Shown here: piece by piece, positions 40,252-58,426 of the stretch
How positions within the stretch are numbered: position 1 is the stretch's first letter
Layout: every line of letters starts with the position of its first letter
Source of the DNA: Candidatus Latescibacterota bacterium
GTDB taxonomy: Bacteria; Latescibacterota; UBA2968; GCA-2709665
Assembly (NCBI GenBank): GCA_965219995.1
Contig: CBDCOX010000002.1
Coordinates: 3,648,001 to 3,712,000 of the forward strand
Length of the DNA stretch: 64,000 bases
Reading direction: 5' to 3'
Translations under genes and position numbers: made by a program
Notes under the pieces: model-generated
Database searches by the model: none
What the model saw: only the letters and a program-made list of their open reading frames with translations
What the model was told of the DNA's origin: nothing

Positions 40252-43200
40252 TTAAATCCAATGGCGGCGGCGCTGGAACGGGTAGCCCGGAAGGGAGATG
40301 CGGCGCCGCGTTTCACCCGAGAACAAACCGTCGAACGAAATCGCCAGCCCCGTCTCGTACGCACCCGCGACCGCCTCGATGAATCGGTCGCAGCATGCCC
40401 CCGCATCGTCACCGGATGGCCGCGGCAGGCTTGAAAGCACAACCGGCGCCTCCCCATCATTCGCGGACTTCGGCCTTGTCATTGTTGAATCGGAGCCGTT
40501 CACAGCGTCCGGCCCGATCTCGATCACGACGTCCACCCCGGCTTCGACCAGGGTTTCGAAACAACGGTCCAGTCTCGCCGGTTCGTTCGCCTTGCGGCGC
40601 CAGTACTCGGCCTCGAGGGCGTCGTCCGGGTCGACGGAACGCCCGGTAGCGCCACTTATCATGTCGACCGAAGGAGGCACAGCCGCGATTTTCTCCACGG
40701 ATCCTTCCGGTCCAAGGGATGCCGCAATCCGCAATCCTTCCTCCAGGCTGAATACCCCCGCCGCCCTGGCTGCCGCGAGTTCACCAAGGTCCCGGCCAAC
40801 GACCACGTTCGGTCGGATACCCACACTCGACCAGAGTTCGGTAAGCGCGCAATGCAACGCGTAGATCGCCGGCTGCCGACAGGCAGGGTCCTCAAAGGCG
40901 CCGTCTGATTCCACTGTCCTGATCATGACCTCCAACAGCGAGGCGTCTCGCATTTCGCGAAAAACCTCGTCGCAGCGATCCAGGACCGCACGCACGACGG
41001 GTTCCGTTTCGTACAGCGAACGGCCCATGCCCGCCTGGTGGCTGTCCTTCCCGGCGTAGGCGAACGCCACCTTCCCGGCGGTCACGGGTACCAACCCATC
41101 CTCCCCCAGCGCCACTGTCTTCAATCCTTCACGCAACGACGCGACGTCGTTGAAGGGCACGCCCGCCCTGTAGGAGAAATGGCTCCGGCCCACCCCCGCG
41201 GTCCAGGCCATGTCGGCGAGCATGTCCGATTGAGCTGCGTGGGAAGACGCCTCCCCGGCACGCTGGTCCAGCCAGTCCGCGTAGCGTGCCGCAAGCTCCC
41301 GGAGCGCCCCTTCGGCCTTGCCGGACAGGGGCAGGAACCGGGTTTCCCGCTTCTGCAACCGGCCATCCTCCGGCAGCGGCAGGTCCCCGACCGGCGCCGG
41401 CAACGAAATGGACACCTGTTGCGCGGACCCGGCGGAAAGGAGGCCCATATCCGGGTTGTTTCCGGCCGGGTTTCCATATCCCTCCACGACCACGTGGGCG
41501 TTCGATCCCGATATCCCGAATGCGCTCACCCCCGCCCTGGACGGTCTGTCGGCGTGGTGCGGCCAGCCCGTTGCCTCGGATGTCACGCGTACAGGGAGCC
41601 GGCTCCAGTCCAGGTTCGGATTGGGAACCCGGAAGTGCAGATGTCTGGGAATCATCCCATGCTTCATCGCCAGCACCGTCTTGATCAGGCCGGCAATCCC
41701 GGCAACCGTCTCCAGGTGCCCGACGTTGGTCTTCACAGACCCGATCAGCAGAGGGCGGTCCGCTTCGCGTTCCCTGCCGTACACCGCCGCCGCCGCCTGC
41801 AACTCAATGGAATCGCCCATGGCGGATCCGGCCCCGTGCGCCTCCAGGTAGTCCACGTCGGACGGGGCGATACCCGCTCTTGCCAGCGCGGCCTCGATCA
41901 GGCGTTCCTGCGCGGGACCGTTCGGTACGGTCGGACCGGCCGCGGCGCCGTTCTGATTGACCGCCGAGCCCCGGACCACGCCCCAGATGCGGTCGCCGTC
42001 CGCTTCCGCGTCCGCGAGTCGCTTCAGGACGACCATGCCGCAACCGTCTCCCCGAACGAAGCCGTTCGCGGACCCGTCGAAGGCCTTGCACTGCCCCTCG
42101 GGCGACAACATCCCCAGTTCCGCCATCTCTCTGGTCAACCTCGGCGACAGGACAGCGTTCACGCCGCCAACCAGGGCGAGGTCGACTTCGCCCTCCCGCA
42201 ATCCCGTCACAGCCTGGTGCACGGCCACCAGCGACGAAGCGCAGTTCAACTCTACGGGTATCGCCGGCCCCTCCAGACCCAGCACGAACGCGACTCGTCC
42301 GACGGTCATGCTGGCGGAAGTACCCAGGTAACTGATATCGTGGTCGCCGGCGGCCATCAGGTCCCTGTACTCGCTGCTGGCGATGCCGGCATAAACCCCG
42401 GTACGGCTTCCCCTCAACCCGCCGGGATCGATGCCGGCATCCTCGAGTGCCTGCCAACTCGTCTCCATCAGCATTCGCTGCTGAGGGTCCATCATGCGTG
42501 CCTCGACGGGCGCAATCTGGAAGAAACGCGCGTCGAACCGGTCGATCCCATCCACAAATCCACCACTGCGGTACACATTGAATCCACCGGTGAGTTCATC
42601 GGCGCAGCTTCCCGTGGTTCCGGAATTCCAGCGACCGTCCGTCACCGCGTTCGCGCCGGCTTCGAGTTGATTCCAGAATTCCATGACGTTTGAAGCGCCA
42701 GGGAATCTGCACGCCATACCGACGATCGCGACGCCGGTTTCCTCGCGTGGAGCGGTCGGCACACGCTCAGGCTCAGGTTGCGGTTCAGGGGCAGGCGCGG
42801 GCGCACTCTCGATCTCACCCAGTTCTCCGACGAGGTGTCCGGCGAGGCTGGCGATATCCGGGTAGTCGAATACCAGCGTGTTGGGCGCTACGTAATGCCC
42901 CGCGAAAGCCCGGTTCAGCCGGTTCCGGAGTTCCACCGCCATCAGCGAATCGATCCCCAGATCGAAGAAGCCCACCGCGGGCGCGGGTGCCGCCGGCAGC
43001 CTCAACACCGCTTGAACTTCCTGCTGCAGGAAGGATACGAGCAATGCTTCGCGCCCCACCGCCGGCGTGACCTCCAGCATGGAAAGCAGGTCTTCCGATG
43101 CGCCTGCCGCGTCCGCCGCGGAATCTTCGGCCGCCGGCAGCAGGTCTTCGAACAGGGACGGACGACCTTCGACGGCCTCTCCGAACACGGACCAGTCCGC

Positions 43201-46200
43201 CGCCAGTACGACCGAAGTCGTGGGATCCTCGCGCAGCAGCCGGTCGAACACCCTGAGGCCCTGTTCCGGGCTGAACCATCCGGTTCCGGCCGCCTCGCGC
43301 CGACGGGCAATCCGGTCCCGCTGTTCCTCCGCCTCGCCGAGTCCGGACCATGCACCCCAGGCGATGGCCTGTCCGGGTAGCCCGAGCGCGCGCCGGTGGG
43401 CGGCGAGTTGATCGAGGAACGTGTTGGCCGCCGCGTGGTTCGCCTGGCCCGGATTGCCCAGAATCCCGGCCACACTCGAGAACAGGACGAAGAGATCCAG
43501 GTCGCAGTCGGCGGTGGACCGGTGCAGATGCCAGGCGCCAAGAACCTTCGGCCGGAGAACCTGCTCGAACCGCTCCCAGCTCTGATTCGCAAGCGAAGCA
43601 TCCGACAGCACCCCCACGCTGTGGATCACGCCTCCAAGCGGCGGCGATTCAGCCTTGATCCGCTCGAACATTGCGTCCACCGCGCCGGCATCCGTGACAT
43701 CGGCCAGCTCCACCCGCACCGCAACGCCGCGTTCCCTGAGCGCTGCGATCGTTTCCTCCGCTTCCTGGTCCGGAGGCCGCCGGCCGTTCAATACGATGGC
43801 CCCCGCACCCCGCTCCGCCAGCCAGCCGGCCAGGGCGCATCCGATTCCGCCCAGGCCGCCGGTCACCAGGTAGGTCCGGTCCTGCCGCAGCCGGCCATCC
43901 ACGAGCGGTGGCGAGGCCAGTACGATCTTCCCGATGTGCCGGGCGTCGCGCATGAACTCCATCGCGGCTCCGGCCTCGGCCAACGGCCACCGGGTGTGGA
44001 TCAGGGGCTTCAGTTCTCCCGCCCCGAGTCGCTCCATAACGTTCCGGAGCGCCGCTCCGGGCCGCGCCGGGTCCTGCTCCTTGAGGACGTCCAGCTCCAG
44101 GATGGCGTAGGCGACGTCCGGCCGCACAGCCGCCATTTCCTCCTCGCTCAGGATGTCGCGCCTTGCCAGCTCGACGAATCGACCGCCTTGCCTGAGGCAG
44201 GACAGACTCGCCTCGATGAAGCCCTCACCGGTAAGGCTGTTCAGCACCACGTCCACACCCGCGCCGTCCGTGGCTTCCAGGATCTCCCCGCCGAAGTCCG
44301 TCGTGCGGCTGTCGAAAATGCGCGTCACGCCGAGTGATCGGAGATACGCCTGTTTAGGCGCGCTCGCGGTGGCGAAGACTTCCGCGCCGGCGGCCTGCGC
44401 CAATTGGACGGCCGCGAGCCCCACGCCGCCCGCGGCGGCGTGGATCAGCACCCGTTCGCCCGCCTTCAGGCCCGCAATATCGAATGACAACGCGGTGGTC
44501 CCGAACACGGTGGGCACCGTGGCGAGGGCTGCGACCGGAATCCCCGGGGGCGCGAGCGCCACCAGTTCCTCCTTCGTCACCACTTCCGGTCCGAATGTGC
44601 CGAATGCCAGGCCGACCACACGGTCGCCCACGGAGACCGTTGAGGTTCCGGAGCCGACCTCTACGATCCGGCCGCACATCTCTTCGCCCATCAGGCCTTC
44701 ACCCACCAGGCCCATGCCCCGGAACACGTCGAGGAAGTTCAGCCCGCGGGCTTCGACCGCGACGCGAACTTCCCCCGGCTCCAGGGAACGCGCCGGCAAC
44801 GGCTGGACCTGAAGCTCCTGGAGCGTGCCGCCGGCGGCAGGGGCCAACAGCCAGTCGGAACCCTCCGGCAGGGCGAGGCGCGCGCCGGTGCGAACCAGGC
44901 GGGCCACCCGGCGGCGCCCGGTCCGATACGCGATTTGCGTCTCCGGGTCGGGAAACAGCAGTTCTTCCGCGAAGTCGCCCGGCAGTTCCGTCGCCTCGGG
45001 GTCGAGATCGATCATCTTCGGATTCAGGTGCGCCGCTTCCCGGGCCACCACCCTGCCGAAACCCCACAACGTCGCTCCGCCAAGCTGCCCCGCGCGCTCC
45101 CGCTCCAGGACCTGCGCGCCACGTGTGACGAACCACACTCCCTTCGCGGGGGTCAGGTCGGCATCGATCACGCCTTGCATCAGAGCCAGCGCGGTGGCCG
45201 TGGCTCGTTTCGCATCCTCTCCCATTTCCTCCGTGGTCGCCGCCGCCCCGTGACCGTCCAGCGCCGCGAGATGCACGATACCGCCGAGGGGCACGTTGCC
45301 GGGCAGTCCCTCCAGCAGGGATTGCCACGACTCGCGCCGGTCCATCTCCACGGCGCAACTGACGACGCCGTCCGCTTCGTGGGCGGACCCCACCGTTTCC
45401 GTCGATTCCGCGTCCGCCAGCACAACCGTCTGGTTCCGCGCTGTGAGTTGGGCCGCCAGCGCCGTGGCGACGCCGCCCCGGTCCCCCGCGAGAACCCATG
45501 CGGCCGGCGGGAGGAGCACCTCCGCCGGCCCCTGCGCCACGATCACGCCCCGGTCGGGCAACCCGGCCGACTCGGACTCGTCGACGCCAAGGATCTCGAC
45601 CTCGCCGAAACCCACGTCGCCGAGCGCTCGCCGCCACACGTCCGGCCCCGCCAGGGCGTGGTCCGAACGGTACCGATCTGCGAATCGCCACCAGCCGTCC
45701 AGCTGTCCGAATATCAGGTCCATCCAGCCTCTGCCGCGCTGGTTCTCCAGCGCCACAAGCTGTCCCGCCGGCGCCAGAAGCTCCCGGCAGTGCGCCAGCG
45801 TCTGATCGAGATACTGCGTCGCATGCAGCACGTTGGCGGCAATTACGAGGTCGTACGCGTGGGAATCATAGCCCTGAGCCGCCGGCTCCTTCTCAATATC
45901 CAAAACGCGGTATTCGATAGGCGCATCCGCCTGGTCGAAACGCGCTTCCGCGTCGGAGAAGAAGCCCGCGGAGATGTCCGTGTAGGTATAGTCGAACCGC
46001 CCGCCCGGCAGCCCGGGCAGGACGCACTCGGTCGCCGACCCGATGCCCGCGCCGACCTCGAGCACCCGGAGCCGGCGCCCCTCCGGCAGCCCGGCCGCAA
46101 GGTCCTGCACCACCTCTCCGAGCATCTGGTTCGCCGCTCGCCACACGGGCGCCCTGCGGTAGAGATCGGCAGCCTGCGGTTCCGCGTCGCCGAACAACAG

Positions 46201-48168
46201 CGACAGCGGGTCCTCGCGGCCCCGCAGCACCTCCGCGAGGGCCCCCGCACAGCGCCTGATGAGCCCGATCTCGTTCGCGCCGTGCCGGTACCGTCCGGTC
46301 ATGCCGGTCGCGTGCTCATCGGCATCATGCGGCATTTCTTCCGGCAACGCATCTTCGGCCCCGACCGCCACCACGAATCCCTCGTCCGCCGCCTCCAGCA
46401 CGCCCGATCGTGCCAGTATTTCGAGGATCCGCCGGAACAGCCGGGCGTGTTCCGGCAAAACTCCCAGGTCCTGCCGCAAGCCGTCCGGATCCACGTCGGC
46501 GCCCGTCGTGCGCCGCCAACCCAGCTTTTCCAGGGCCGAAAGCGCATACGCCCACGACAACCGCTCCAGGTCGGCTTGCAGGGCGGCCTCTTCTTCGACG
46601 CCGACGCCTTCGGCGGCCAGGTACAGTGAGAATGGCTTCGAGCGGGGCGCCACGTCCAACGGGCCTGGCAGGAAATCGGCGGACGGCATTCCAGGCTCGA
46701 GGACACTGTCCCGCCACACCATCTCGTACAGGAGTTCGTCCAGTCCTTCCACGGCCGAGAGCAGCGCTTCACGGGTCGCGCGCTTCACCGTATATCCATC
46801 CAGCTCGCACAGCAGGGTACCGCTCGGGTCGTAGATCCGGAGGTCTCCGGTAAGGACCTCCGGCGGCTCGGATTCCGTATCCGGCGACGGGGTCCGCAGG
46901 TCTGCGGACATGCGCGCGTGGCAGACAACCCGCTCCGGGAGCGGCCCCGCGAGCCAAAGCCGTTCCCATCCGAACGGCAGATAGGTGACCCCTTCCCAGG
47001 TCCCCGCCGGTTCGCGCGCCGCGGCCATGACCTGGAAACAACCGTCGAGCAGGAGCGGATGGATTTCGTTCCCGCCGGGGTCGATGCCTGCCGGCAGCGC
47101 CACCTCGCCAAGCGCCTCACCCGTCCCGGACCAGACCGCTTCCAGCGTCCGGAACGACGGCCCATGGTCGATCCCTACCCCGGCCTTCGCCCGATAGATT
47201 GCGGCCACGTCCTGCGGCGACAGGTCGGCTTTGAGGCTCTTCAGGTCCGACGGCGCCTCCGTACTCGGACCGCCGGTGTCCGGCGACAACCGGCCCTCCG
47301 CGTGCAGCGTCCACTCGTCTCCGGAATCTCCCCTGCTGAGTATTCGAATTCGTTGCGCCTCGCCGGGCTCGTCGATCAGGACCTGCATTCTCCTGCCCCG
47401 TTCACCGGCCTCGTCGCCGGCGTTCTCATCCGCGAAGATCAACGGGTTGTGGAGTTGAACATCCTCGAGCGCGTCCCTCCCGGCGCCCTCGGCGAAGGCG
47501 GCCGATACCGCCATGGCCCCGTAGAGCGCGCCCGGCGCCACGAGCCGGTCGAACACCCGGTGGTCCCGCATCCATGCCGGGTCCGAGGGAAACACCTCCG
47601 TATCGAACGCGACCTCGCCGCTGGCGGATTCGTGCCGGCCTCCAAGCAGCGGGTGGCCGGCGCCCGTCCGCCGCCTGGTCGCCTTGACCCAATGGCTCTT
47701 GCGCTGGAACGGATAGCCCGGCAACGAGACCCGGCGCCGCGCTTCGCCGGCGAACAGGCCGGAAAAGGAAACCGGTAGTCCCGATTCGTAAGCCCTTGCG
47801 ACGGCCACTGGAAAGGCACGGTCGGCCTCCGCCCGCGACACCCTGCTCGAGGGGCGCAACAGGCTCGAAAGCGCGATCGGCGGCGGGGCGCTTCCCGCTG
47901 CGTCCGGCCAGGCCATGGTCGCCATCGATCCAAGCACCGAATGGGGCCCGACTTCAATGATCAGATCGACGCCCAGACGCGCCAGGGTCTCCATGCTTCG
48001 ACTGAATGCCACCGCCTCGCGCGAGTGGCGGCGCCAGTATGCGCCGTCCATTCGTTCATCCGACTCCAGCACCCTGCCCGTCACGTTGCTGATGAGTGTG
48101 AGCGAAGGAGACGAGATTTCCAGATTCGCGACCACGTCCTCCAACCCGTCCAGCATCGGATCCACCAT
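40252..48168 (-). CDS. supA: SupA-like type I PKS, C-terminal part (AT end-DH-cMT-ER-KR-ACP-KS-degenerate AT), downstream of the frameshift
   Basis: DH HRVFDRLVAP and DGCFQ; MT LEVGAGIG; ER IHAAAGGVG; KR TGGLGGIG; ACP GIDSL; KS NCASS, EAHG, VGHL; AT GRDLG. Confidence 0.88.
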   Translation of the reverse strand: MVDPMLDGLEDVVANLEISSPSLTLISNVTGRVLESDERMDGAYWRRHSREAVAFSRSMETLARLGVDLIIEVGPHSVLGSMATMAWPDAAGSAPPPIALSSLLRPSSRVSRAEADRAFPVAVARAYESGLPVSFSGLFAGEARRRVSLPGYPFQRKSHWVKATRRRTGAGHPLLGGRHESASGEVAFDTEVFPSDPAWMRDHRVFDRLVAPGALYGAMAVSAAFAEGAGRDALEDVQLHNPLIFADENAGDEAGERGRRMQVLIDEPGEAQRIRILSRGDSGDEWTLHAEGRLSPDTGGPSTEAPSDLKSLKADLSPQDVAAIYRAKAGVGIDHGPSFRTLEAVWSGTGEALGEVALPAGIDPGGNEIHPLLLDGCFQVMAAAREPAGTWEGVTYLPFGWERLWLAGPLPERVVCHARMSADLRTPSPDTESEPPEVLTGDLRIYDPSGTLLCELDGYTVKRATREALLSAVEGLDELLYEMVWRDSVLEPGMPSADFLPGPLDVAPRSKPFSLYLAAEGVGVEEEAALQADLERLSWAYALSALEKLGWRRTTGADVDPDGLRQDLGVLPEHARLFRRILEILARSGVLEAADEGFVVAVGAEDALPEEMPHDADEHATGMTGRYRHGANEIGLIRRCAGALAEVLRGREDPLSLLFGDAEPQAADLYRRAPVWRAANQMLGEVVQDLAAGLPEGRRLRVLEVGAGIGSATECVLPGLPGGRFDYTYTDISAGFFSDAEARFDQADAPIEYRVLDIEKEPAAQGYDSHAYDLVIAANVLHATQYLDQTLAHCRELLAPAGQLVALENQRGRGWMDLIFGQLDGWWRFADRYRSDHALAGPDVWRRALGDVGFGEVEILGVDESESAGLPDRGVIVAQGPAEVLLPPAAWVLAGDRGGVATALAAQLTARNQTVVLADAESTETVGSAHEADGVVSCAVEMDRRESWQSLLEGLPGNVPLGGIVHLAALDGHGAAATTEEMGEDAKRATATALALMQGVIDADLTPAKGVWFVTRGAQVLERERAGQLGGATLWGFGRVVAREAAHLNPKMIDLDPEATELPGDFAEELLFPDPETQIAYRTGRRRVARLVRTGARLALPEGSDWLLAPAAGGTLQELQVQPLPARSLEPGEVRVAVEARGLNFLDVFRGMGLVGEGLMGEEMCGRIVEVGSGTSTVSVGDRVVGLAFGTFGPEVVTKEELVALAPPGIPVAALATVPTVFGTTALSFDIAGLKAGERVLIHAAAGGVGLAAVQLAQAAGAEVFATASAPKQAYLRSLGVTRIFDSRTTDFGGEILEATDGAGVDVVLNSLTGEGFIEASLSCLRQGGRFVELARRDILSEEEMAAVRPDVAYAILELDVLKEQDPARPGAALRNVMERLGAGELKPLIHTRWPLAEAGAAMEFMRDARHIGKIVLASPPLVDGRLRQDRTYLVTGGLGGIGCALAGWLAERGAGAIVLNGRRPPDQEAEETIAALRERGVAVRVELADVTDAGAVDAMFERIKAESPPLGGVIHSVGVLSDASLANQSWERFEQVLRPKVLGAWHLHRSTADCDLDLFVLFSSVAGILGNPGQANHAAANTFLDQLAAHRRALGLPGQAIAWGAWSGLGEAEEQRDRIARRREAAGTGWFSPEQGLRVFDRLLREDPTTSVVLAADWSVFGEAVEGRPSLFEDLLPAAEDSAADAAGASEDLLSMLEVTPAVGREALLVSFLQQEVQAVLRLPAAPAPAVGFFDLGIDSLMAVELRNRLNRAFAGHYVAPNTLVFDYPDIASLAGHLVGELGEIESAPAPAPEPQPEPERVPTAPREETGVAIVGMACRFPGASNVMEFWNQLEAGANAVTDGRWNSGTTGSCADELTGGFNVYRSGGFVDGIDRFDARFFQIAPVEARMMDPQQRMLMETSWQALEDAGIDPGGLRGSRTGVYAGIASSEYRDLMAAGDHDISYLGTSASMTVGRVAFVLGLEGPAIPVELNCASSLVAVHQAVTGLREGEVDLALVGGVNAVLSPRLTREMAELGMLSPEGQCKAFDGSANGFVRGDGCGMVVLKRLADAEADGDRIWGVVRGSAVNQNGAAAGPTVPNGPAQERLIEAALARAGIAPSDVDYLEAHGAGSAMGDSIELQAAAAVYGREREADRPLLIGSVKTNVGHLETVAGIAGLIKTVLAMKHGMIPRHLHFRVPNPNLDWSRLPVRVTSEATGWPHHADRPSRAGVSAFGISGSNAHVVVEGYGNPAGNNPDMGLLSAGSAQQVSISLPAPVGDLPLPEDGRLQKRETRFLPLSGKAEGALRELAARYADWLDQRAGEASSHAAQSDMLADMAWTAGVGRSHFSYRAGVPFNDVASLREGLKTVALGEDGLVPVTAGKVAFAYAGKDSHQAGMGRSLYETEPVVRAVLDRCDEVFREMRDASLLEVMIRTVESDGAFEDPACRQPAIYALHCALTELWSSVGIRPNVVVGRDLGELAAARAAGVFSLEEGLRIAASLGPEGSVEKIAAVPPSVDMISGATGRSVDPDDALEAEYWRRKANEPARLDRCFETLVEAGVDVVIEIGPDAVNGSDSTMTRPKSANDGEAPVVLSSLPRPSGDDAGACCDRFIEAVAGAYETGLAISFDGLFSGETRRRISLPGYPFQRRRHWI

Positions 48169-50528
48169 GGGCTGTGGAAGGCGTTTCCGGTGGCGAGTCG
48201 GTTGACCCGGACTTCCCGGGCAAGGAAGCGCTCCGAGATCTCCGTAACGTCGACTTCAGGGCCGCTCACGACCTGATGCGCGCCATTGTACGCAGCGATG
48301 CACAGTCCCATCCCGTCGGACGCGGCATTCAGTTCATCGATCGCCGTCTCGACTTGCTGTACGTCGGCGAAGATCGCGGCCATGGCGCCGCCTTGCGGCA
48401 ACGCAGCCGTGAGTTCCCCCCTCGCCGCGGCAAAACGTACGCCTTCCTCCAGGTCGAACACCCCCGCCGCCTGTGCGGCGGCGTGTTCACCAAAGCTGTG
48501 GCCGAGCACAACGTGAGGACGAACACCCAGGCTGGACCACAGCGCCGTCAGTGCGCACTCCAACGAAAAAATCGCCGCCTGCGTCCACGCCTGGTTGGAA
48601 AGATCTCCTGATCGCCCGAACATCACATCCAGCAGCGAGCTGCCCCGTTCCTTCCTCATCACCGCATCGCAGCGGTCGAGGACCGCTCGGAACACCGGCT
48701 CCGTCTCGTAGAGCTTCTCACCCATACCAACCCAGTGGCTTCCCTGACCCGTGTACAGGAAGGCAACCCGGGAAGGAGCTTGCGCGTCGTTCGCGGCGCC
48801 CGAGTCGGCAAGTGCACGGAGCTCTTCGCGCAGAGACGGAACGTCGTCGAAGACGATGCCTTTCCGATGTGTGAAATGGCTCCGGCCCACGCCGGCCGTC
48901 CACGCCATGTCGGCAAGCACGGACTGTGCCGCGCCCCCGGGTTCGGCGGCGCGCTCGTCCAGCCAGTCCAGGTACCGCCCCGCCAGGACCTGAAGCGCCT
49001 CATTCGACTTCCCGGAAAGCGGCAAAACGCGCGTTTCTCTATCTGCCGGAGCGTCCGAGCCCTGCATCTGTTCTGCTGTCTCGCCGGGAAGCGTTACGGC
49101 GACACGCATTCGGGAACCCGACGGCCACCGGCGATTTTCGACGCCGGCCAGCCCTTCCGCCCCGGCATCGTACGCTTCCACCACCACGTGTGCGTTCGTG
49201 CCCGACCAGCCGAAACCACTTATCCCGGCCGTCGGGAGCCGCTCCGCATGGCGCGGCCAGGCTGACTGTTCCGCCGTCACCTGCAGAGGCATCCTGTCCC
49301 AGTCCAACGCCGGATTCGGCTCACGGAAGTTCAGGTGCCTTGGAATCACGCCGTGATTCATTGCCAGCGCGACCTTTATCAGCGCCGCAACGCCGGCCGC
49401 AGGCTCGAGATGGCCGATGTTCGTCTTCACCGAACCGATCAGGAGCGGCCTGTCCTGCGCGCGACCGTCGCCGTAAGCGGTCGCGGCTGCCCGTAACTCG
49501 ATGGGGTCGCCCACCGTCGTACCCGTCCCGTGCGCCTCCAGATAATCCACGTCCAACGGCGTGAGCCCGGCATCTGACAACGCGGCCCCGATGACGCGCT
49601 CCTGTGAAGCGCCGTTCGGTACGGTCAACCCCGGGCTTGCGCCATCCTGGTTGACCGCCGAACCGCGGATTACGCCCCAGATCCGGTCGCCGTCCGCCTC
49701 CGCCTCGCGGAGTCGCTTCAGAACCACGATGCCACATCCTTCGCCCCGCACATAACCGTTCGCGGCGGCGTCGAACGTCTTGCATTGCCCGTCGGGCGCC
49801 AACATTCCTGCCTTCCCTCGCAGTTCAGACAGCCGCCCGGACACGATCAGGTGAACCCCTCCGGCGAGCGCGAGGTCCGCTTCGCCCCGTTGCAGCCCCG
49901 ACACCGCCTGATGAGTCGCCACCAGCGATGACGAGCAGGCGGTGTCAAGCGCCATCGCCGGCCCCTCGAGTCCCAGTGCGAAGGCGACCCGACCGATGGC
50001 CGTGTTGAAGGAAGTGCCGCTGACGGCATAGAGGCTTGCCGCCGGCTCGGTAATCTCGGTCCCACCCAGGATCAGGCTGCGGTAGTCGTGATTGCTGATC
50101 CCCGCATAGACGCCGGTCCGGCTGCCCTTCAGCCGATCCGGATCCATCCCCGCATCCTCGATCGCCTTCCAGCTCGTTTCCAGCATCAACCGCTGCTGCG
50201 GGTCGAGCAATTGCGCCTCGACCGGCGAAATGCGAAAGAACGCAGCGTCGAACAGGTCGATTCTGTCGAGGTAAGCGCCGAAACGGCAGGCTTCGCTCTG
50301 AATCTCGGCGTCGGGAAAAAGCTCTCCTATGCGCCCGTCGCCGGAACCAGGGACTCCCTCACTGACGGCATTTTCGCCGGCTTCCAGCAATTTCCAGAAC
50401 GAAGGGACGTCCGGCGCCCCCGGAAATCGACAGGCCATGCCCACGATTGCGATTGGCTGCGCGAAGCCGGAATTCGCGCGGTCGCCGCTCAGGTCTTCCG
50501 AATATTCAACATGCCCTTCTGCGTCCAT
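48081..50528 (-). CDS. supA: SupA-like type I PKS, N-terminal part (KS-AT), frameshifted at 48169-48171
   Basis: Likely start MDAEGH; DTACSSS, EAHGTGT, NIGHLE, AT GHSFG and NAFHS; homology continues in another frame. Confidence 0.88.
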   Translation of the reverse strand: MDAEGHVEYSEDLSGDRANSGFAQPIAIVGMACRFPGAPDVPSFWKLLEAGENAVSEGVPGSGDGRIGELFPDAEIQSEACRFGAYLDRIDLFDAAFFRISPVEAQLLDPQQRLMLETSWKAIEDAGMDPDRLKGSRTGVYAGISNHDYRSLILGGTEITEPAASLYAVSGTSFNTAIGRVAFALGLEGPAMALDTACSSSLVATHQAVSGLQRGEADLALAGGVHLIVSGRLSELRGKAGMLAPDGQCKTFDAAANGYVRGEGCGIVVLKRLREAEADGDRIWGVIRGSAVNQDGASPGLTVPNGASQERVIGAALSDAGLTPLDVDYLEAHGTGTTVGDPIELRAAATAYGDGRAQDRPLLIGSVKTNIGHLEPAAGVAALIKVALAMNHGVIPRHLNFREPNPALDWDRMPLQVTAEQSAWPRHAERLPTAGISGFGWSGTNAHVVVEAYDAGAEGLAGVENRRWPSGSRMRVAVTLPGETAEQMQGSDAPADRETRVLPLSGKSNEALQVLAGRYLDWLDERAAEPGGAAQSVLADMAWTAGVGRSHFTHRKGIVFDDVPSLREELRALADSGAANDAQAPSRVAFLYTGQGSHWVGMGEKLYETEPVFRAVLDRCDAVMRKERGSSLLDVMFGRSGDLSNQAWTQAAIFSLECALTALWSSLGVRPHVVLGHSFGEHAAAQAAGVFDLEEGVRFAAARGELTAALPQGGAMAAIFADVQQVETAIDELNAASDGMGLCIAAYNGAHQVVSGPEVDVTEISERFLAREVRVNRLATGNAFHSPWWIRCWTGWRTWSRIWKSRLLRSHSSAT

Positions 50529-50659
50529 TTTGTCCCCCCCCCGATATGCGCGATCGAGCACGCCCACCTTACACGATACGCCCGGACCCGTTCCGAGGGT
50601 ATCGGAAGAATCTGCCAACTTCAGTATCCGTAACTCCAATGACGAACGGCAAACGAGAT

Positions 50660-54927: not shown

Positions 54928-54984
54928 CAATTTGACTGTTGTCTTTTTTGAATCGAGGTCAATCGCGTGCAATGGAAGGTAAGT

Positions 54985-55018
54985 GAGGGGGTGCGGCGAC
55001 TGCCGCACCCCCTCTTTT
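54985..55018 (+). terminator. Intrinsic terminator
   Basis: Perfect 13-bp stem GAGGGGGTGCGGC/GCCGCACCCCCTC, loop GACT, then TTTT. Confidence 0.8.
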
Positions 55019-55039
55019 GCGAGGCAGAGGTCTGATAAT

Positions 55040-56038
55040 ATGTCTGGCAACAGGACATCAGCGGAGAATTCGAAAGAGACGCATGACGGTGGGGCGTCCG
55101 TCCGCGATATGACGGCGGCGCTTGATCGCGCCAAGGGGGCGCTGATCGGTCTCGCTTTGGGGGACGCGCTCGGCACGACGCTGGAATTTGCCGGCAGGGA
55201 TACAAGGCCGCAGGTTATCGAACTGGTGGGCGGGGGCCCGTTCGACCTGGCGCCGGGTGAGTGGACCGACGACACGAGCATGGCCCTCTGTCTCGCGGAA
55301 TCGCTTCTTGAACGGGGCCGGCTGGACGTTCACGATCTGATGAATCGGTTCCTCCGGTGGTATAAGGAGGGACATAACTCGGTCACCGGCATGTGTTTCG
55401 ACATCGGTGTGACCACGGAACGGGCGTTCCGGACTTTCAGCGAATCCGGGGAGCCGTTGAGCGGCAGCATCGATCCGCGCAGCGCCGGGAACGGATCTCT
55501 GATGCGGCTCTCGCCGGTGGCGATCCGATGGTGGCGCGACCGGGCGGAGGCGACGGCGGCCGCGCGTTTGCAGAGCCGCACCACGCACGGCGCCGCGCAG
55601 GCGGTGGAGGCGTGCGCGTTCTATGCCGAACTGCTGGTCGAGGCGATCGCAGGAGCGCCGAAGGAGACCGTCCTGCGCGCCAGAGAGTGGAGCGGCGACG
55701 CTCAGATCGCCGGGGTGGCCGCGGGGTCGTGGCGCGCAAAGGAACGCGACGCGATTTCCTCGTCCGGTTACGTATTGCACACGCTCGAAGCGGCCCTGTG
55801 GTGCGTCGATAGATCGGAATCCATTGAGAACGCCCTGATTCTGGCTGCCAATCTCGCCGATGACGCCGACACCGTGGCCGCCGTCACCGGTCAACTCGCC
55901 GGCGCGCTTTGGGGCATGTTGGGCGCTCCCGCCGGGTGGCTCGAGAAACTGGCGTGGCGCGGGCGCCTGGAAGCGCTCGCCACCGGCCTGTTCGAGACCG
56001 CCAACAGCGAGCGGGCCGACTGGAATGCCACCACCTAA
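55040..56038 (+). CDS. ADP-ribosylglycohydrolase (DraG/Tri1-like)
   Basis: GDALG, WTDDTSM, GNGSLMR, TTH, DADTVAAVTG; start uncertain (55040 or 55109). Confidence 0.93.
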   Translation: MSGNRTSAENSKETHDGGASVRDMTAALDRAKGALIGLALGDALGTTLEFAGRDTRPQVIELVGGGPFDLAPGEWTDDTSMALCLAESLLERGRLDVHDLMNRFLRWYKEGHNSVTGMCFDIGVTTERAFRTFSESGEPLSGSIDPRSAGNGSLMRLSPVAIRWWRDRAEATAAARLQSRTTHGAAQAVEACAFYAELLVEAIAGAPKETVLRAREWSGDAQIAGVAAGSWRAKERDAISSSGYVLHTLEAALWCVDRSESIENALILAANLADDADTVAAVTGQLAGALWGMLGAPAGWLEKLAWRGRLEALATGLFETANSERADWNATT

Positions 56039-56874
56039 CCCGTTAGACTTCCGTACCCCAGTCCCACGGCTTTTTTCACCGCCTCCAGCGTCCGCTGGCC
56101 CTCGATCCTCGCTTCCGACCCCCCCAGATGCAGGACGTCTCCGACCCGAGTTCGCGTACCTTCCAGCTGCGCCGCTGCGATCCGAAACGGCTCCTGCTCG
56201 GCATCCTTCCGCGCCGCCTGCGCCTCCCCATTTTTCGTCGTCCCAACCTGCTCTTCGGCATCCGCAAACCCAACCGCAATTGAGTCACCCACGCGCATTC
56301 CGGTATTTCCGCAGGGACCATTCATCCTTACGCTCTGCTGGTACCCGGGCAGAGGAAAGACGGTCCCGAATTTGCGATTGAATCGACGCGCTACTTCCCG
56401 GCACAGATTCGAGCGCATCCGCTGACCGGGGCCTGCAGCAACAATCGAAGGCCGGAATAGCAGCACGTCCGCCGGCTGAAATACCGTAGAACCGGCAGAC
56501 CCGAGTTCTGGCGACCGCCTCGCTGCATCCCGCTCCCGTTTCGCCTCCGGACCGTCCATCGGGGCGGGCAGCGTAATTGCATGATCGAGAATCATCGCCA
56601 ACTCCCCGAGTTGCGGAACCTGCGACTGCAGAAAGCAGACGCTTCGCTCCGGATCGAACCCGGAGGCCAGAAGATTCGTGACAAGCTTGCGAATGTTGAG
56701 TTCGATCCCGCGTGGATGTTCCCGATCCCTGCGCAATGCATCGAAGTCGGCGATCATGAAAAAACACCTTGCATCCGCCTGCCGGTCAAGCAGGTGTTTC
56801 AGGAACCCGATCAAGTGTCCCAGGTTCATTCGTTCCGTTGGCCGGACACCGGCCAGGACAATCGGACGTTTCAT
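56035..56874 (-). CDS. Degenerate tryptophanyl-tRNA synthetase-like protein (pseudoenzyme or decaying paralogue)
   Basis: GVRPT-x-MNLGH, FMIAD, GFDPERS, FLQS, ARRFN..FG..FPLP and the C-terminal helix are retained; no KMSKS; AGGGAG SD; no internal stops. Confidence 0.82.
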   Translation of the reverse strand: MKRPIVLAGVRPTERMNLGHLIGFLKHLLDRQADARCFFMIADFDALRRDREHPRGIELNIRKLVTNLLASGFDPERSVCFLQSQVPQLGELAMILDHAITLPAPMDGPEAKRERDAARRSPELGSAGSTVFQPADVLLFRPSIVAAGPGQRMRSNLCREVARRFNRKFGTVFPLPGYQQSVRMNGPCGNTGMRVGDSIAVGFADAEEQVGTTKNGEAQAARKDAEQEPFRIAAAQLEGTRTRVGDVLHLGGSEARIEGQRTLEAVKKAVGLGYGSLTG

Positions 56875-56961
56875 TCTGAATACTCCCTATTTTCAAATGT
56901 CTCTTATTTGAACGACGGACCGGCGCCCGGGCGCCGCGTTGGGATGTGCGTTTAGCCATAC

Positions 56962-56998
56962 AAGAAAAGCCGCGATCCACCTTCAGGTGAACCGCGGC
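56962..56998 (-). terminator. Intrinsic terminator/attenuator between trpS and the paralogue
   Basis: GCCGCGGTTCACC-TGAA-GGTGGATCGCGGC (13 bp, two G-U pairs) followed by TTTTCTT. Confidence 0.85.
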
Positions 56999-57120
56999 CA
57001 TCGCCACTCCTTCACGCACGGATCATCCGGTGGCGGACGCACGGCTCCCGTTGCCCCGAGCCACCAGCGGTGAAGGGAAATCGCCGCGTTACCAGACAGA
57101 ATGCCCGAATGTTGTGTCAT
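56983..57120 (-). CDS. Putative second Trp-rich leader peptide (45 aa)
   Basis: MTQHSGILSGNAAISLHRWWLGATGAVRPPPDDPCVKEWRWPRFT; starts 8 nt after the trpS stop, with GAGG SD overlapping that stop; its own stop lies in the terminator loop. Confidence 0.62.
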   Translation of the reverse strand: MTQHSGILSGNAAISLHRWWLGATGAVRPPPDDPCVKEWRWPRFT

Positions 57121-57128
57121 GGATAGCC

Positions 57129-58205
57129 TCACGATCCCGAGTCCCTCTGTTCGTCCCTGCGCATCCGGTCCCGGGCTTTCCGGGAGATCCGGTTCCAGAC
57201 GCCCGTGAGCCCCATCGCCTTCTTCATTGCCTTCAGCGTTTCATCGGCCACGACCTGGACGCGCTGCGTGCCTTCGTACAACACCTTTTCCACGTACCCG
57301 GAATCCGCTTCGTATCGCGCCCGGCGCTCACGGATTGGGTCCAGAAAACTGTTCAGCGCCCGGGTCAGCTTGTCCTTCACCTCCACGTCGCCGACCGTCC
57401 CGGCGCGGTACCGTGTCTTCAGATTCTCCACCTCATCCCGATCCGGGTTGAACGCGTCGTGGTAGATAAAGACCGGATTCCCTTCCACCTTGCCGGGGAT
57501 ATCCGCACGCACGCGGTTGGGATCGGTAAACATCCCGCGCACCTTCTTCTTCACCGTCTGCGCATCGTCAGACAGAAAGATCGCATTGTCCAGGCTCTTG
57601 CTCATCTTCGCCTGGCCGTCCGTACCCACCAGAACCGGGACCTCGCCGATCAGGGCGTCCGGAATGGGGAAGACCTCCCCGTAATAGCTGTTGAACCGCC
57701 GGGCGATCTCCCGGGTCACCTCGACGTGCGCCAGGTTGTCTTTTCCCACGGGAACCAGGTGCGCCCTTGGAGTCAATATGTCCGCCGCCTGCAGAATAGG
57801 ATATCCGACGAGTCCGAACGGGATCGCCTCTTCGTCCAGCCTGGCGGCGCGCGCCATATCCTTGATGCTGGGCAGCCGGGCGACTCTCGGCAGCGTCACC
57901 AGCATCTCGAAGAAGAGATCCATCTCGTAGACGGCGTGGATGGCCGACTGCAGATAAATGGTCGATCTGGACGGATCGATGCCCACGGCCAGGTAATCCA
58001 GCAGCATCTCCCGCACGTTCTCCCGAAGGGCATGGATGTGTTCCTTCTGCGGCCGGGTGGTGAGCATATGCAGGTCCGCCACGAGAAAATAACATTCGTA
58101 TTCGTCCTGCAGCCGGACCCGGTTTTTCAAGGAGCCCACGTAATGCCCCAGGTGCATCCGCCCCGTGGGACGGTCTCCCGTCAGAATCCGTTTCCGATTG
58201 TTCAT
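57129..58205 (-). CDS. trpS: Tryptophan--tRNA ligase
   Basis: [37 protein letters not shown]; ATG at 58205 after GGAGG. Confidence 0.97.
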
Positions 58206-58218
58206 CGCGTTTTCCTCC

Positions 58219-58251
58219 AAAACAAAAATCCCCGCCGTGGACCGGCAGGGA
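58219..58251 (-). terminator. Attenuator terminator upstream of trpS
   Basis: TCCCTGCCG-GTCCA-CGGCGGGGA followed by TTTTTGTTTT, just before the trpS SD. Confidence 0.85.
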
Positions 58252-58280
58252 CGTTGACTTATCCAGATTGAATCTCAAGT

Positions 58281-58397: not shown

Positions 58398-58426
58398 ACG
58401 ATATCGAATTCCGGATGCCCTGTCAA
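58398..58426 (-). promoter_or_regulatory. Sigma70-type promoter of the trpS leader
   Basis: Minus strand TTGACA-17 nt-TATCGT, 40 bp upstream of the leader ATG. Confidence 0.78.

Follow-up and report, generated by a model that had tools for sequence, protein, structure and literature searches.

The 64,000-nucleotide window analysed here (positions 3,648,001 to 3,712,000 of contig CBDCOX010000002.1, assembly GCA_965219995.1, from a Candidatus Latescibacterota bacterium) carries, directly 3′ of the housekeeping tryptophanyl-tRNA synthetase gene trpS and on the same minus strand, a second open reading frame (ORF) for a shortened and degenerate paralogue of tryptophanyl-tRNA synthetase (TrpRS; 56035..56874). 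Substitution patterns among its relatives show the paralogue to be a real protein-coding gene under purifying selection, and the state of its motifs makes tRNA charging by the product not plausible. The gene is one member of a lineage-specific TrpRS clade in which, as judged from the aligned family, the module formed by the KMSKS loop and the anticodon-binding domain has been lost repeatedly and in frame under sustained purifying selection. The window's protein is probably, though with modest assurance, a selected non-aminoacylating pseudo-synthetase that acts by protein contacts through its retained dimerization and C-terminal surfaces.

Results

A degenerate paralogue beside trpS

The paralogue ORF is open over 279 codons plus a stop, starts with an ATG at 56874, and has a Shine-Dalgarno-like GGGAG at 56883..56887 (minus strand), 8 nt 5′ of the start codon. 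An uninterrupted frame of 279 residues with a Shine-Dalgarno sequence had been described in the original prediction, made from the letters of the window. The same prediction put the neighbouring TrpS at about 358 residues, which agrees with the count from the ATG at 58205 (trpS, 57129..58205, minus strand; the longest ORF begins at a TTG at 58220). BLASTP aligns residues 3–176 of the paralogue with TrpS at 37% identity (179 columns, E 2e-36). Pfam PF00579 covers residues 3–175 only, corresponding to profile positions 5–181 of 292, and the TrpRS equivalog TIGR00233 covers residues 3–184 only at 107.7 bits, under its cut-off of 176.75 and compared to 313 bits for TrpS. There are three PF00579 genes in the source genome (5.4 Mb, 98.6% complete): a TyrRS-like gene, trpS, and the paralogue. 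A frameshifted pseudogene can be ruled out, as a tblastn search of TrpS against 55800–57128 returned a single in-frame N-terminal match and no remnant of KMSKS or the anticodon domain in other frames. The gene was also rejected as an outlier in codon composition, its GC content at third codon positions (GC3) of 0.66 versus 0.80 for trpS falling inside the spread of the window's other ORFs.

The ORF encodes an aminoacylation-domain core, a connective peptide 1 (CP1) helix, a degenerate linker, and C-terminal helices, and every motif change listed in the original prediction recurs in the alignment and motif table. The HIGH site, HLGH in TrpS, reads NLGH (residues 17–20; 56815..56826, minus strand, as are all segments of the gene below), ADLHML is altered, the Trp-pocket stretch is GSTVFQPAD, VGKDN has become AGPGQ instead of GxDQ, and the KMSKS-aligned site is a loop remnant, GMRVG (residues 192–196; 56287..56301). 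Most of the anticodon-binding region had also been described as deleted and the C-terminal helix as kept; accordingly, about 50 unalignable residues with a low predicted local distance difference test score (pLDDT) replace the anticodon-binding domain between the Rossmann part and the C-terminal helices, which can be aligned with those of TrpS (..TLEAVKKAVGL). The anticodon-reading loop region, where Escherichia coli TrpRS has the anticodon-reading residues T225, D226, S227, and K274 (PMC12135181), is missing. The same source describes E. coli Gln152 and Glu155, the latter of which reads the discriminator base G73; mapped by eye, that site holds an Asn in the window's protein (..RMRSNLCRE..) and a Glu in TrpS and the full-length paralogues. 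Charging of tRNA is not plausible because NLGH and GMRVG stand at the catalytic motifs, the anticodon loop is gone, and Asn takes the place of the G73-reading Glu. Asp136, which in Thermotoga maritima TrpRS hydrogen-bonds the indole nitrogen of Trp (PMC2954223), and Gln151, the Gln of GxxQ, are both present.

Structure prediction of the paralogue alone had been proposed as a check in the original prediction. The AlphaFold2 (AF2) model (pLDDT 70, predicted template modelling score 0.70) is confident in the Rossmann core and C-terminal helices, with pLDDT below 50 at residues 106–112, 116–118, 120–128, and 182–222. Its top Foldseek matches are bacterial TrpRS throughout (TMq 0.63–0.72), and matches in the ESM Atlas are ordinary TrpRS clusters only.

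Selection and intactness

The ratio of non-synonymous to synonymous substitution rates (dN/dS or ω) was estimated by the Nei-Gojobori method for the 15 pairs among six genomes holding both genes, with 500 bootstrap replicates for 9 of the pairs. Whole-gene values for the paralogue were 0.28–0.46 in all 15 pairs, in which trpS next to it gave 0.05–0.09, and in each of the 9 pairs, including those with dS above 1, none of the 500 replicates reached 1. Copies of the paralogue were found in 27 of 41 related genomes, and a whole-genome search reading through stops revealed an internal stop in none of them; within the window's own genus, 6 of 15 genomes carry the gene. The dN/dS comparison among homologues that had been suggested as a check on ordinary decay thus points away from it. 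The start codon and Shine-Dalgarno sequence are conserved, with AGGAG or GGGAG at the same place in the seven relatives inspected (L031–L035, L059, and L062). Contigs from four other public sequencing runs contain the ORF free of insertions and deletions, with 11 single-base differences, 5 of them synonymous and the other 6 non-synonymous.

Constraint within the gene forms a mosaic in which residues 61–100, 129–178, and 229–279 have ω of about 0.1–0.4 and residues 101–128 and 179–228, the low-pLDDT stretches, have ω of about 1. The block CFLQSQVPQLGELAMILDH (residues 80–98; 56581..56637) is the first CP1 helix, which in E. coli TrpRS is the dimer-interface helix with interface residues A89, G92, W93, and N96 (PMC10201369), placed on the paralogue by eye. 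Residues 80–89 and 91 are invariant among all 28 aligned family members, and residues 61–100 have a dN/dS of 0.09–0.26 in 8 of 9 pairs. The middle of CP1 (residues 101–128; 56491..56574) is predicted to be disordered and appears to evolve neutrally (0.52–1.63, with confidence intervals that include 1). Constraint returns in the second half of the Rossmann fold (residues 129–178; 56341..56490; 0.11–0.40), which holds GSTVFQPAD with Asp136, AGPGQ, and the Asn noted above. The linker at the former place of the KMSKS loop and anticodon-binding domain (residues 179–228; 56191..56340), in which GMRVG lies, has a dN/dS of about 1 within the close group. The C-terminal helical hairpin and tail (residues 229–279; 56038..56190), with the signature L.LGGS.ARIEGQRTLE.VK.A.G..Y..L.G, combine a dN/dS of 0.08–0.30, pLDDT of 84–96, and invariant columns in the family alignment.

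A Latescibacterota clade of second TrpRS proteins

The family of the paralogue is small. A search of 1.84 billion representative proteins returned only 7 at E ≤ 1e-30, and a collection of species-representative genomes yielded 32 loci in metagenome-assembled genomes of Candidatus Latescibacterota, a few of them labelled Gemmatimonadota. A quick maximum-likelihood tree groups all 48 family members into one clade, separate from canonical TrpRS (SH-aLRT 99). Full-length members (332 aa) retain HLGH, GYPVSQAAD, GPDQ, and KMGKS, and all 332-aa relatives examined have a C-x20-C-x6-C-x2-C motif (the x20 spacing is a hand count on L010), while TrpS is without the four-cysteine motif. In the window's protein this motif, C-x(20–24)-C-x6-C-x2-C in general form, is missing, as the region holding the cysteines has been lost entirely. 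That the paralogue is not a recent copy of the neighbouring trpS, as the original prediction had proposed, is supported because it falls in a separate clade whose full-length members bear four cysteines that TrpS does not have. Among solved structures, Deinococcus radiodurans TrpRS II comes closest to a full-length member (300 bits); specific orthology is not claimed, since the housekeeping TrpS scores as high against the same chain (318 bits).

In the window's family, the paralogue lies directly 3′ of trpS wherever the flanks can be seen (the window, L031–L035, L059, L060, and L062). In a sister family the gene is not adjacent to trpS, and its neighbourhoods vary (a convergent polA-GNAT arrangement; DCC1-like and RNase II genes; NosD-like and sulfatase genes) and offer no functional hint. 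A GNAT acetyltransferase gene is convergent to the paralogue in L024, L027, and L028 of the sister family, where it follows polA, and also in L029 (G017), so that two families are represented.

Repeated loss of the KMSKS/anticodon module

Truncation in the clade is in frame, with at least 6 distinct deletion boundaries visible, and the truncated state requires 9 changes on the quick tree. The 248-aa forms share a ..GQSKI|MTPFR junction and are 84 residues shorter than the 332-aa forms; 245-aa forms occur in two different versions, P0011 and P0016 keep KMGKS and have lost the later part, and further truncated groups are P0021/L059, P0024, L060/L062, a 259-aa form in G038, and the window's own group. 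Constraining all of the trpS-adjacent degenerate forms to a single clade costs no likelihood (approximately unbiased test, p-AU 0.70), and adjacency to trpS was therefore counted as one event. On this basis, the losses of the module can be counted as one old event in the window's family and at least five younger ones. In E. coli TrpRS the aminoacylation domain consists of residues 1–85, 140–183, and 299–334, CP1 of residues 86–139, and the anticodon-binding domain of residues 184–298 (PMC12135181). The deletions remove all or most of the equivalent of residues 184–298, and KMSKS in most lineages, and leave the aminoacylation domain and CP1; the C-terminal helix is always kept because residues 299–334 belong to the aminoacylation rather than the anticodon domain. 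A split gene was rejected, since in the five genomes searched (G023, G027, G029, G035, and G000) the 85-aa module deleted from the 248-aa forms matched only the housekeeping trpS.

The seven 248-aa forms have a median ω of 0.092 among themselves at a dS of 0.21, compared to 0.101 for six full-length forms over the same columns, and module loss therefore left selection on the remainder unrelaxed. These forms keep HLGH, GYPVSQAAD, and GPDQ intact. HIGH substitutions nevertheless occur already among young truncated forms (YLGH in L048; HLEH in L022 and P0017), whereas departures from HLGH in proteins with a retained anticodon domain are limited to the degenerate outlier P0020 (HQDH) and to L058 (HVGH). 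P0020, a full-length metagenomic protein of 329 aa, also has TDGKK for KMSKS and has lost the cysteine motif; decay of the catalytic motifs can therefore also precede domain loss.

Later decay and retained surfaces

Conservation was compared between 12 degenerate and 17 full-length forms, with positions at least 90% conserved in the full-length and less than 60% in the degenerate forms termed relaxed. By this measure 67 positions are relaxed, 54 are identical and unchanged, and 2 have switched to a new conserved residue, and there is therefore no sign of a new active site. The relaxed positions cluster in the HIGH motif and its surroundings, ADYQALTTH, the CP1 middle, GYP, PVGPDQ.PH.E, and the KMGKS loop. 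Retained are the core strands, CFLQSQVPQL.EL in the first CP1 helix, RFN..G.VF, and the C-terminal signature given above; conservation across the family is highest in the C-terminal helices and tail, the tail being a feature that canonical TrpRS lacks. Within the window's clade the HIGH site occurs as NLGH, ILRH, ILGH, HRGH, HQRD, and HQRR and is thus unconstrained, the pocket occurs as GSTVFQPAD, GYPVFQPAA, and GDTVLQTAD, and the indole-binding Asp is replaced by Ala in L032 and by Tyr in L062. Neither a conserved ligand site nor a new catalytic site is favoured by this pattern of variation, which points instead to a function that resides in the fold, the dimer helix, and the C-terminal surface.

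Surroundings of the paralogue

A terminator-like hairpin (14 bp and a U-tract; 56968..56999, minus strand), whose stem is kept by compensatory changes in relatives, lies between trpS and the paralogue. It overlaps a conserved small ORF of 45 aa (P0047; 56983..57120, minus strand) that starts 8 nt past the trpS stop behind a GAGG, contains tandem Trp codons (RWW), two further Trp codons, and RPPPDD, and has its stop in the loop of the hairpin. Start, frame, and ..RWW....VRPPPD are common to the versions of this ORF in 9 genomes, which range from 42 to 93 aa. It also follows trpS in G012 and G013, which do not have the paralogue (in G014 as a DNA match only), and it therefore belongs to the 3′ end of trpS. 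It could encode a Trp-sensing leader or arrest peptide, or else a small protein. A UGGUGG/CCACCGG helix upstream is invariant, and covariation is hence uninformative there. A T-box between trpS and the paralogue, considered for a GGUGG..CGCGG resemblance, was rejected because Rfam gave no match up to an E value of 1. A GC-rich perfect palindrome (GGCGCCCGGGCGCC; 56922..56935), largely kept in three close relatives, lies between the terminator and the paralogue start and may be an operator or a hairpin.

Upstream of trpS, a second terminator-like hairpin (10 pairs and a U-tract; 58228..58252, minus strand) stands immediately before the start, with a sigma-70-like TTGACA/TATCGT pair about 150 nt further upstream (58398..58426, minus strand). 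Together these may form a trpS leader or attenuator; the hairpin region has no Rfam match. On the other side, an ADP-ribosylglycohydrolase gene (54983..56038, plus strand) overlaps the end of the paralogue by 4 nt at its own 3′ end and occupies the site of the GNAT gene elsewhere. Two very large ORFs, of 2638 aa (40252..48168, minus strand) and 852 aa (48081..50639, minus strand), are also present in the window, and the smaller resembles by eye a polyketide synthase ketosynthase-acyltransferase module.

Discussion

The observations outline a probable history of the window's gene. The ancestor would have been a second, full-length Latescibacterota TrpRS with the four-cysteine motif, and the first step in the window's lineage would have been an in-frame deletion that took away the entire anticodon-binding helical domain together with the KMSKS loop. 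The HIGH motif, Trp pocket, GxDQ, and G73-reading residue would then have been freed from constraint, while conservation persisted in the Rossmann core, in the first CP1 helix, and in the C-terminal helices with their family-specific tail. A pseudoenzyme, the reading offered by the original prediction, is supported by the combination of purifying selection and the loss of the parts needed for charging. A sensor of Trp or a Trp analogue, one of the roles suggested there, is not supported in view of the free variation of the pocket and HIGH site in the window's clade and the loss of the indole-contacting Asp in L032 and L062.

The leading specific model is that the paralogue captures a TrpS subunit, as the original prediction also envisaged in naming a heterodimer partner. 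TrpRS is an obligate dimer in which each tRNA is bound across subunits (PMC2954223; PMC12135181), and the E. coli apoenzyme exchanges between monomer and dimer, dimerization being required for cross-subunit tRNA binding (PMC10201369). Because tRNA is bound in this manner, a heterodimer of TrpS and the paralogue would have no productive tRNA site, and TrpRS activity would be lowered or tuned. The predicted complex of the two proteins scored 0.56 (runs 0.62, 0.44, and 0.56) against 0.32 for the best of 3 controls, with at least 62% of contacts shared between runs and a partner pLDDT of at least 62. Of the reference pairs, 58 of 80 solved complexes passed this mark, as did 2 of 110 mismatched pairs; at scores of 0.60 or less, however, the passes comprised only 7 of the 80 solved complexes and both of the mismatches. 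The prediction lends the heterodimer weak support. Within the pseudo-synthetase reading, the heterodimer is ranked slightly above a homodimeric scaffold, which is almost as likely.

Several points weigh against the pseudo-synthetase reading or against the heterodimer in particular. The pass of the predicted complex is perhaps a memory of solved TrpRS homodimers, and among passes at such low scores the false outnumber the true. In a comparison of 6 genomes with and 3 without the paralogue, no change in TrpS CP1 (residues 60–150, 6 variable columns) tracks its presence, and the interface helices of the paralogue and TrpS differ strongly (QVPQLGELAMIL in the compared pair). The truncated form in G038, which has a degenerate HIGH region, lies far from trpS, and with the trpS-adjacent degenerate forms compatible with a single clade, adjacency may go back to one event. 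In the window itself the strong terminator-like hairpin separates the two genes, no promoter for the paralogue was identified, and the sequencing runs listed as holding the ORF included none of RNA. The gene is also dispensable, having not been found in 9 of the 15 genomes of the window's genus, and in G012, G013, and G014 it is cleanly absent, without a remnant, between trpS and the ADP-ribosylglycohydrolase gene. Its dN/dS is 4–6 times that of trpS, and the persistence of Asp136 and the Gln of GxxQ in the window's protein is compatible with residual ligand binding.

Much of this could be read as the signature of an ordinary decaying duplicate without function, its frame open by chance or recency. 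The patchy distribution in the genus, the elevated ω, the two predicted disordered stretches with ω near 1, and a GC3 below that of trpS, though inside the range of the window's ORFs, would all fit. Decay is nonetheless very improbable given a whole-gene ω whose bootstraps never reach 1 in any of the 9 pairs, the absence of an internal stop in the copies of 27 genomes, the conserved Shine-Dalgarno sequence and start, the strongly constrained 51 C-terminal residues, and an ORF free of insertions and deletions in four other sequencing runs. It is also improbable, if less so, that the protein retains enzymatic activity, as a minimal catalytic domain lacking the anticodon domain that activates Trp or a related acid, or uses an aminoacyl-tRNA, in a reaction other than charging, in the manner of truncated class I paralogues such as Glu-Q-RS or of cyclodipeptide synthases. 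Truncated yet active paralogues of aminoacyl-tRNA synthetases (aaRS) are known (PMC9437257), the Rossmann core is kept along with Asp136 and Gln151, and the young 248-aa relatives have their catalytic motifs intact. Set against these are the differences from genome to genome in HIGH, pocket, and GxDQ within the window's clade, with Asp136 itself replaced in two members, the 67 once-conserved positions that relaxed with only 2 gaining a new conserved residue, and the HIGH substitutions already seen in young truncated forms and rare in those that keep the anticodon domain.

A homodimeric scaffold unrelated to TrpS, which would engage another partner through the C-terminal hairpin and the ..G..Y..L.G tail, is on its own terms unlikely but a more serious contender than either. 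The conservation of the C-terminal helices and of a tail that canonical TrpRS lacks, the position of the sister-family gene away from trpS, the lack of co-variation in TrpS, and an interface helix of the same type as in the full-length and presumably homodimeric relatives are what such a scaffold would lead one to expect. The variable gene neighbourhood, however, points to no partner, and a search for longer proteins returned no informative domain fusion (one 659-aa match, at 36% identity over 59% of the query). The preferred pseudo-synthetase reading can also be extended to an 'anti-synthetase' series, in which a second TrpRS would repeatedly and independently have been made into a subunit without an anticodon domain that traps TrpS monomers. 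Read-through of the terminator, which ends in or just after the conserved Trp-codon-rich small ORF (RWW..RPPPDD), would control expression of this subunit in the window's lineage. Taken jointly, these propositions are improbable, and less likely to hold than the scaffold.

HisZ, a class II HisRS paralogue named in the original prediction, is the regulatory subunit of ATP phosphoribosyltransferase. The window's protein resembles HisZ as an aaRS paralogue that has no anticodon-binding domain and is maintained by selection, probably as a non-aminoacylating, non-catalytic subunit. The two differ in that HisZ partners HisG rather than the parent synthetase and still binds histidine, whereas no ligand site is conserved here.

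Closer in proposed mechanism is SLIMP, the SerRS-like insect mitochondrial protein, an inactive paralogue that forms a heterodimer with the canonical synthetase (PMC9437257), which is the arrangement of the leading model for the TrpRS paralogue. SLIMP differs in being eukaryotic, class II, and essential, with tRNA binding kept, whereas the tRNA-binding parts of the bacterial paralogue are gone and many relatives dispense with it altogether. The double-length TyrRS of trypanosomatids is a class Ic pseudo-dimer in which one half without catalytic motifs still dimerizes (PMC9437257), but its halves are fused and the dead half aids one working tRNA site, whereas here the genes are separate and the anticodon domain is gone. 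Glu-Q-RS (YadB), a class I GluRS paralogue without an anticodon-binding domain (PMC9437257), keeps its catalytic motifs and activates Glu, unlike the degenerate paralogue.

Two TrpRS proteins compare more directly with the full-length members of the family. The T. maritima [4Fe-4S] TrpRS (PDB 2g36) has C-x22-C-x6-C-x2-C at the place of the family's cysteine motif, and in organisms with several TrpRS genes the motif occurs in only one (PMC2954223); the window's protein differs in having lost this region wholly. D. radiodurans TrpRS II (PDB 2a4m and 1yi8) shares ADxQAL and YPVSQAAD with the full-length members and is likewise a second TrpRS beside a housekeeping one. It is full-length, active, auxiliary, and binds NO synthase, unlike the truncated and degenerate protein of the window. 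A partnership with NO synthase as in Deinococcus was ruled out, because no PF02898 gene was matched in the window's genome (98.6% complete), though the control genomes of Bacillus subtilis and D. radiodurans were matched.

The known TrpRS duplicates are TrpRS II and the indolmycin-resistant TrpRS, according to a 2022 review (PMC9437257), which tabulates duplicated aaRS alongside aaRS-like proteins and has no aaRS-like entry for TrpRS. In a full-text search, the term 'TrpRS-like' occurred in one paper only, on the human enzyme. No description of this TrpRS paralogue family was found in the literature searched, which consisted in part of titles and the beginnings of abstracts and did not extend to subscription journals.

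There are only a few synthetase paralogues without catalysis, HisZ and SLIMP among them, and all have been informative on how translation enzymes are reused. The clade described here, from uncultured hosts, contains all of the stages in one lineage: full-length enzymes with four cysteines, young forms without the module that remain under strong selection (ω of about 0.09), and old forms in which the dimer helix and C-terminal helices persist despite the decay of every ligand contact. It thereby offers a natural experiment on a class Ic catalytic domain without its tRNA-binding domain, on how paralogues of an obligate homodimer interfere or cooperate, and on the origin of a pseudoenzyme. Should the 'anti-synthetase' reading be true, TrpRS activity would be coupled to the supply of Trp-tRNA.

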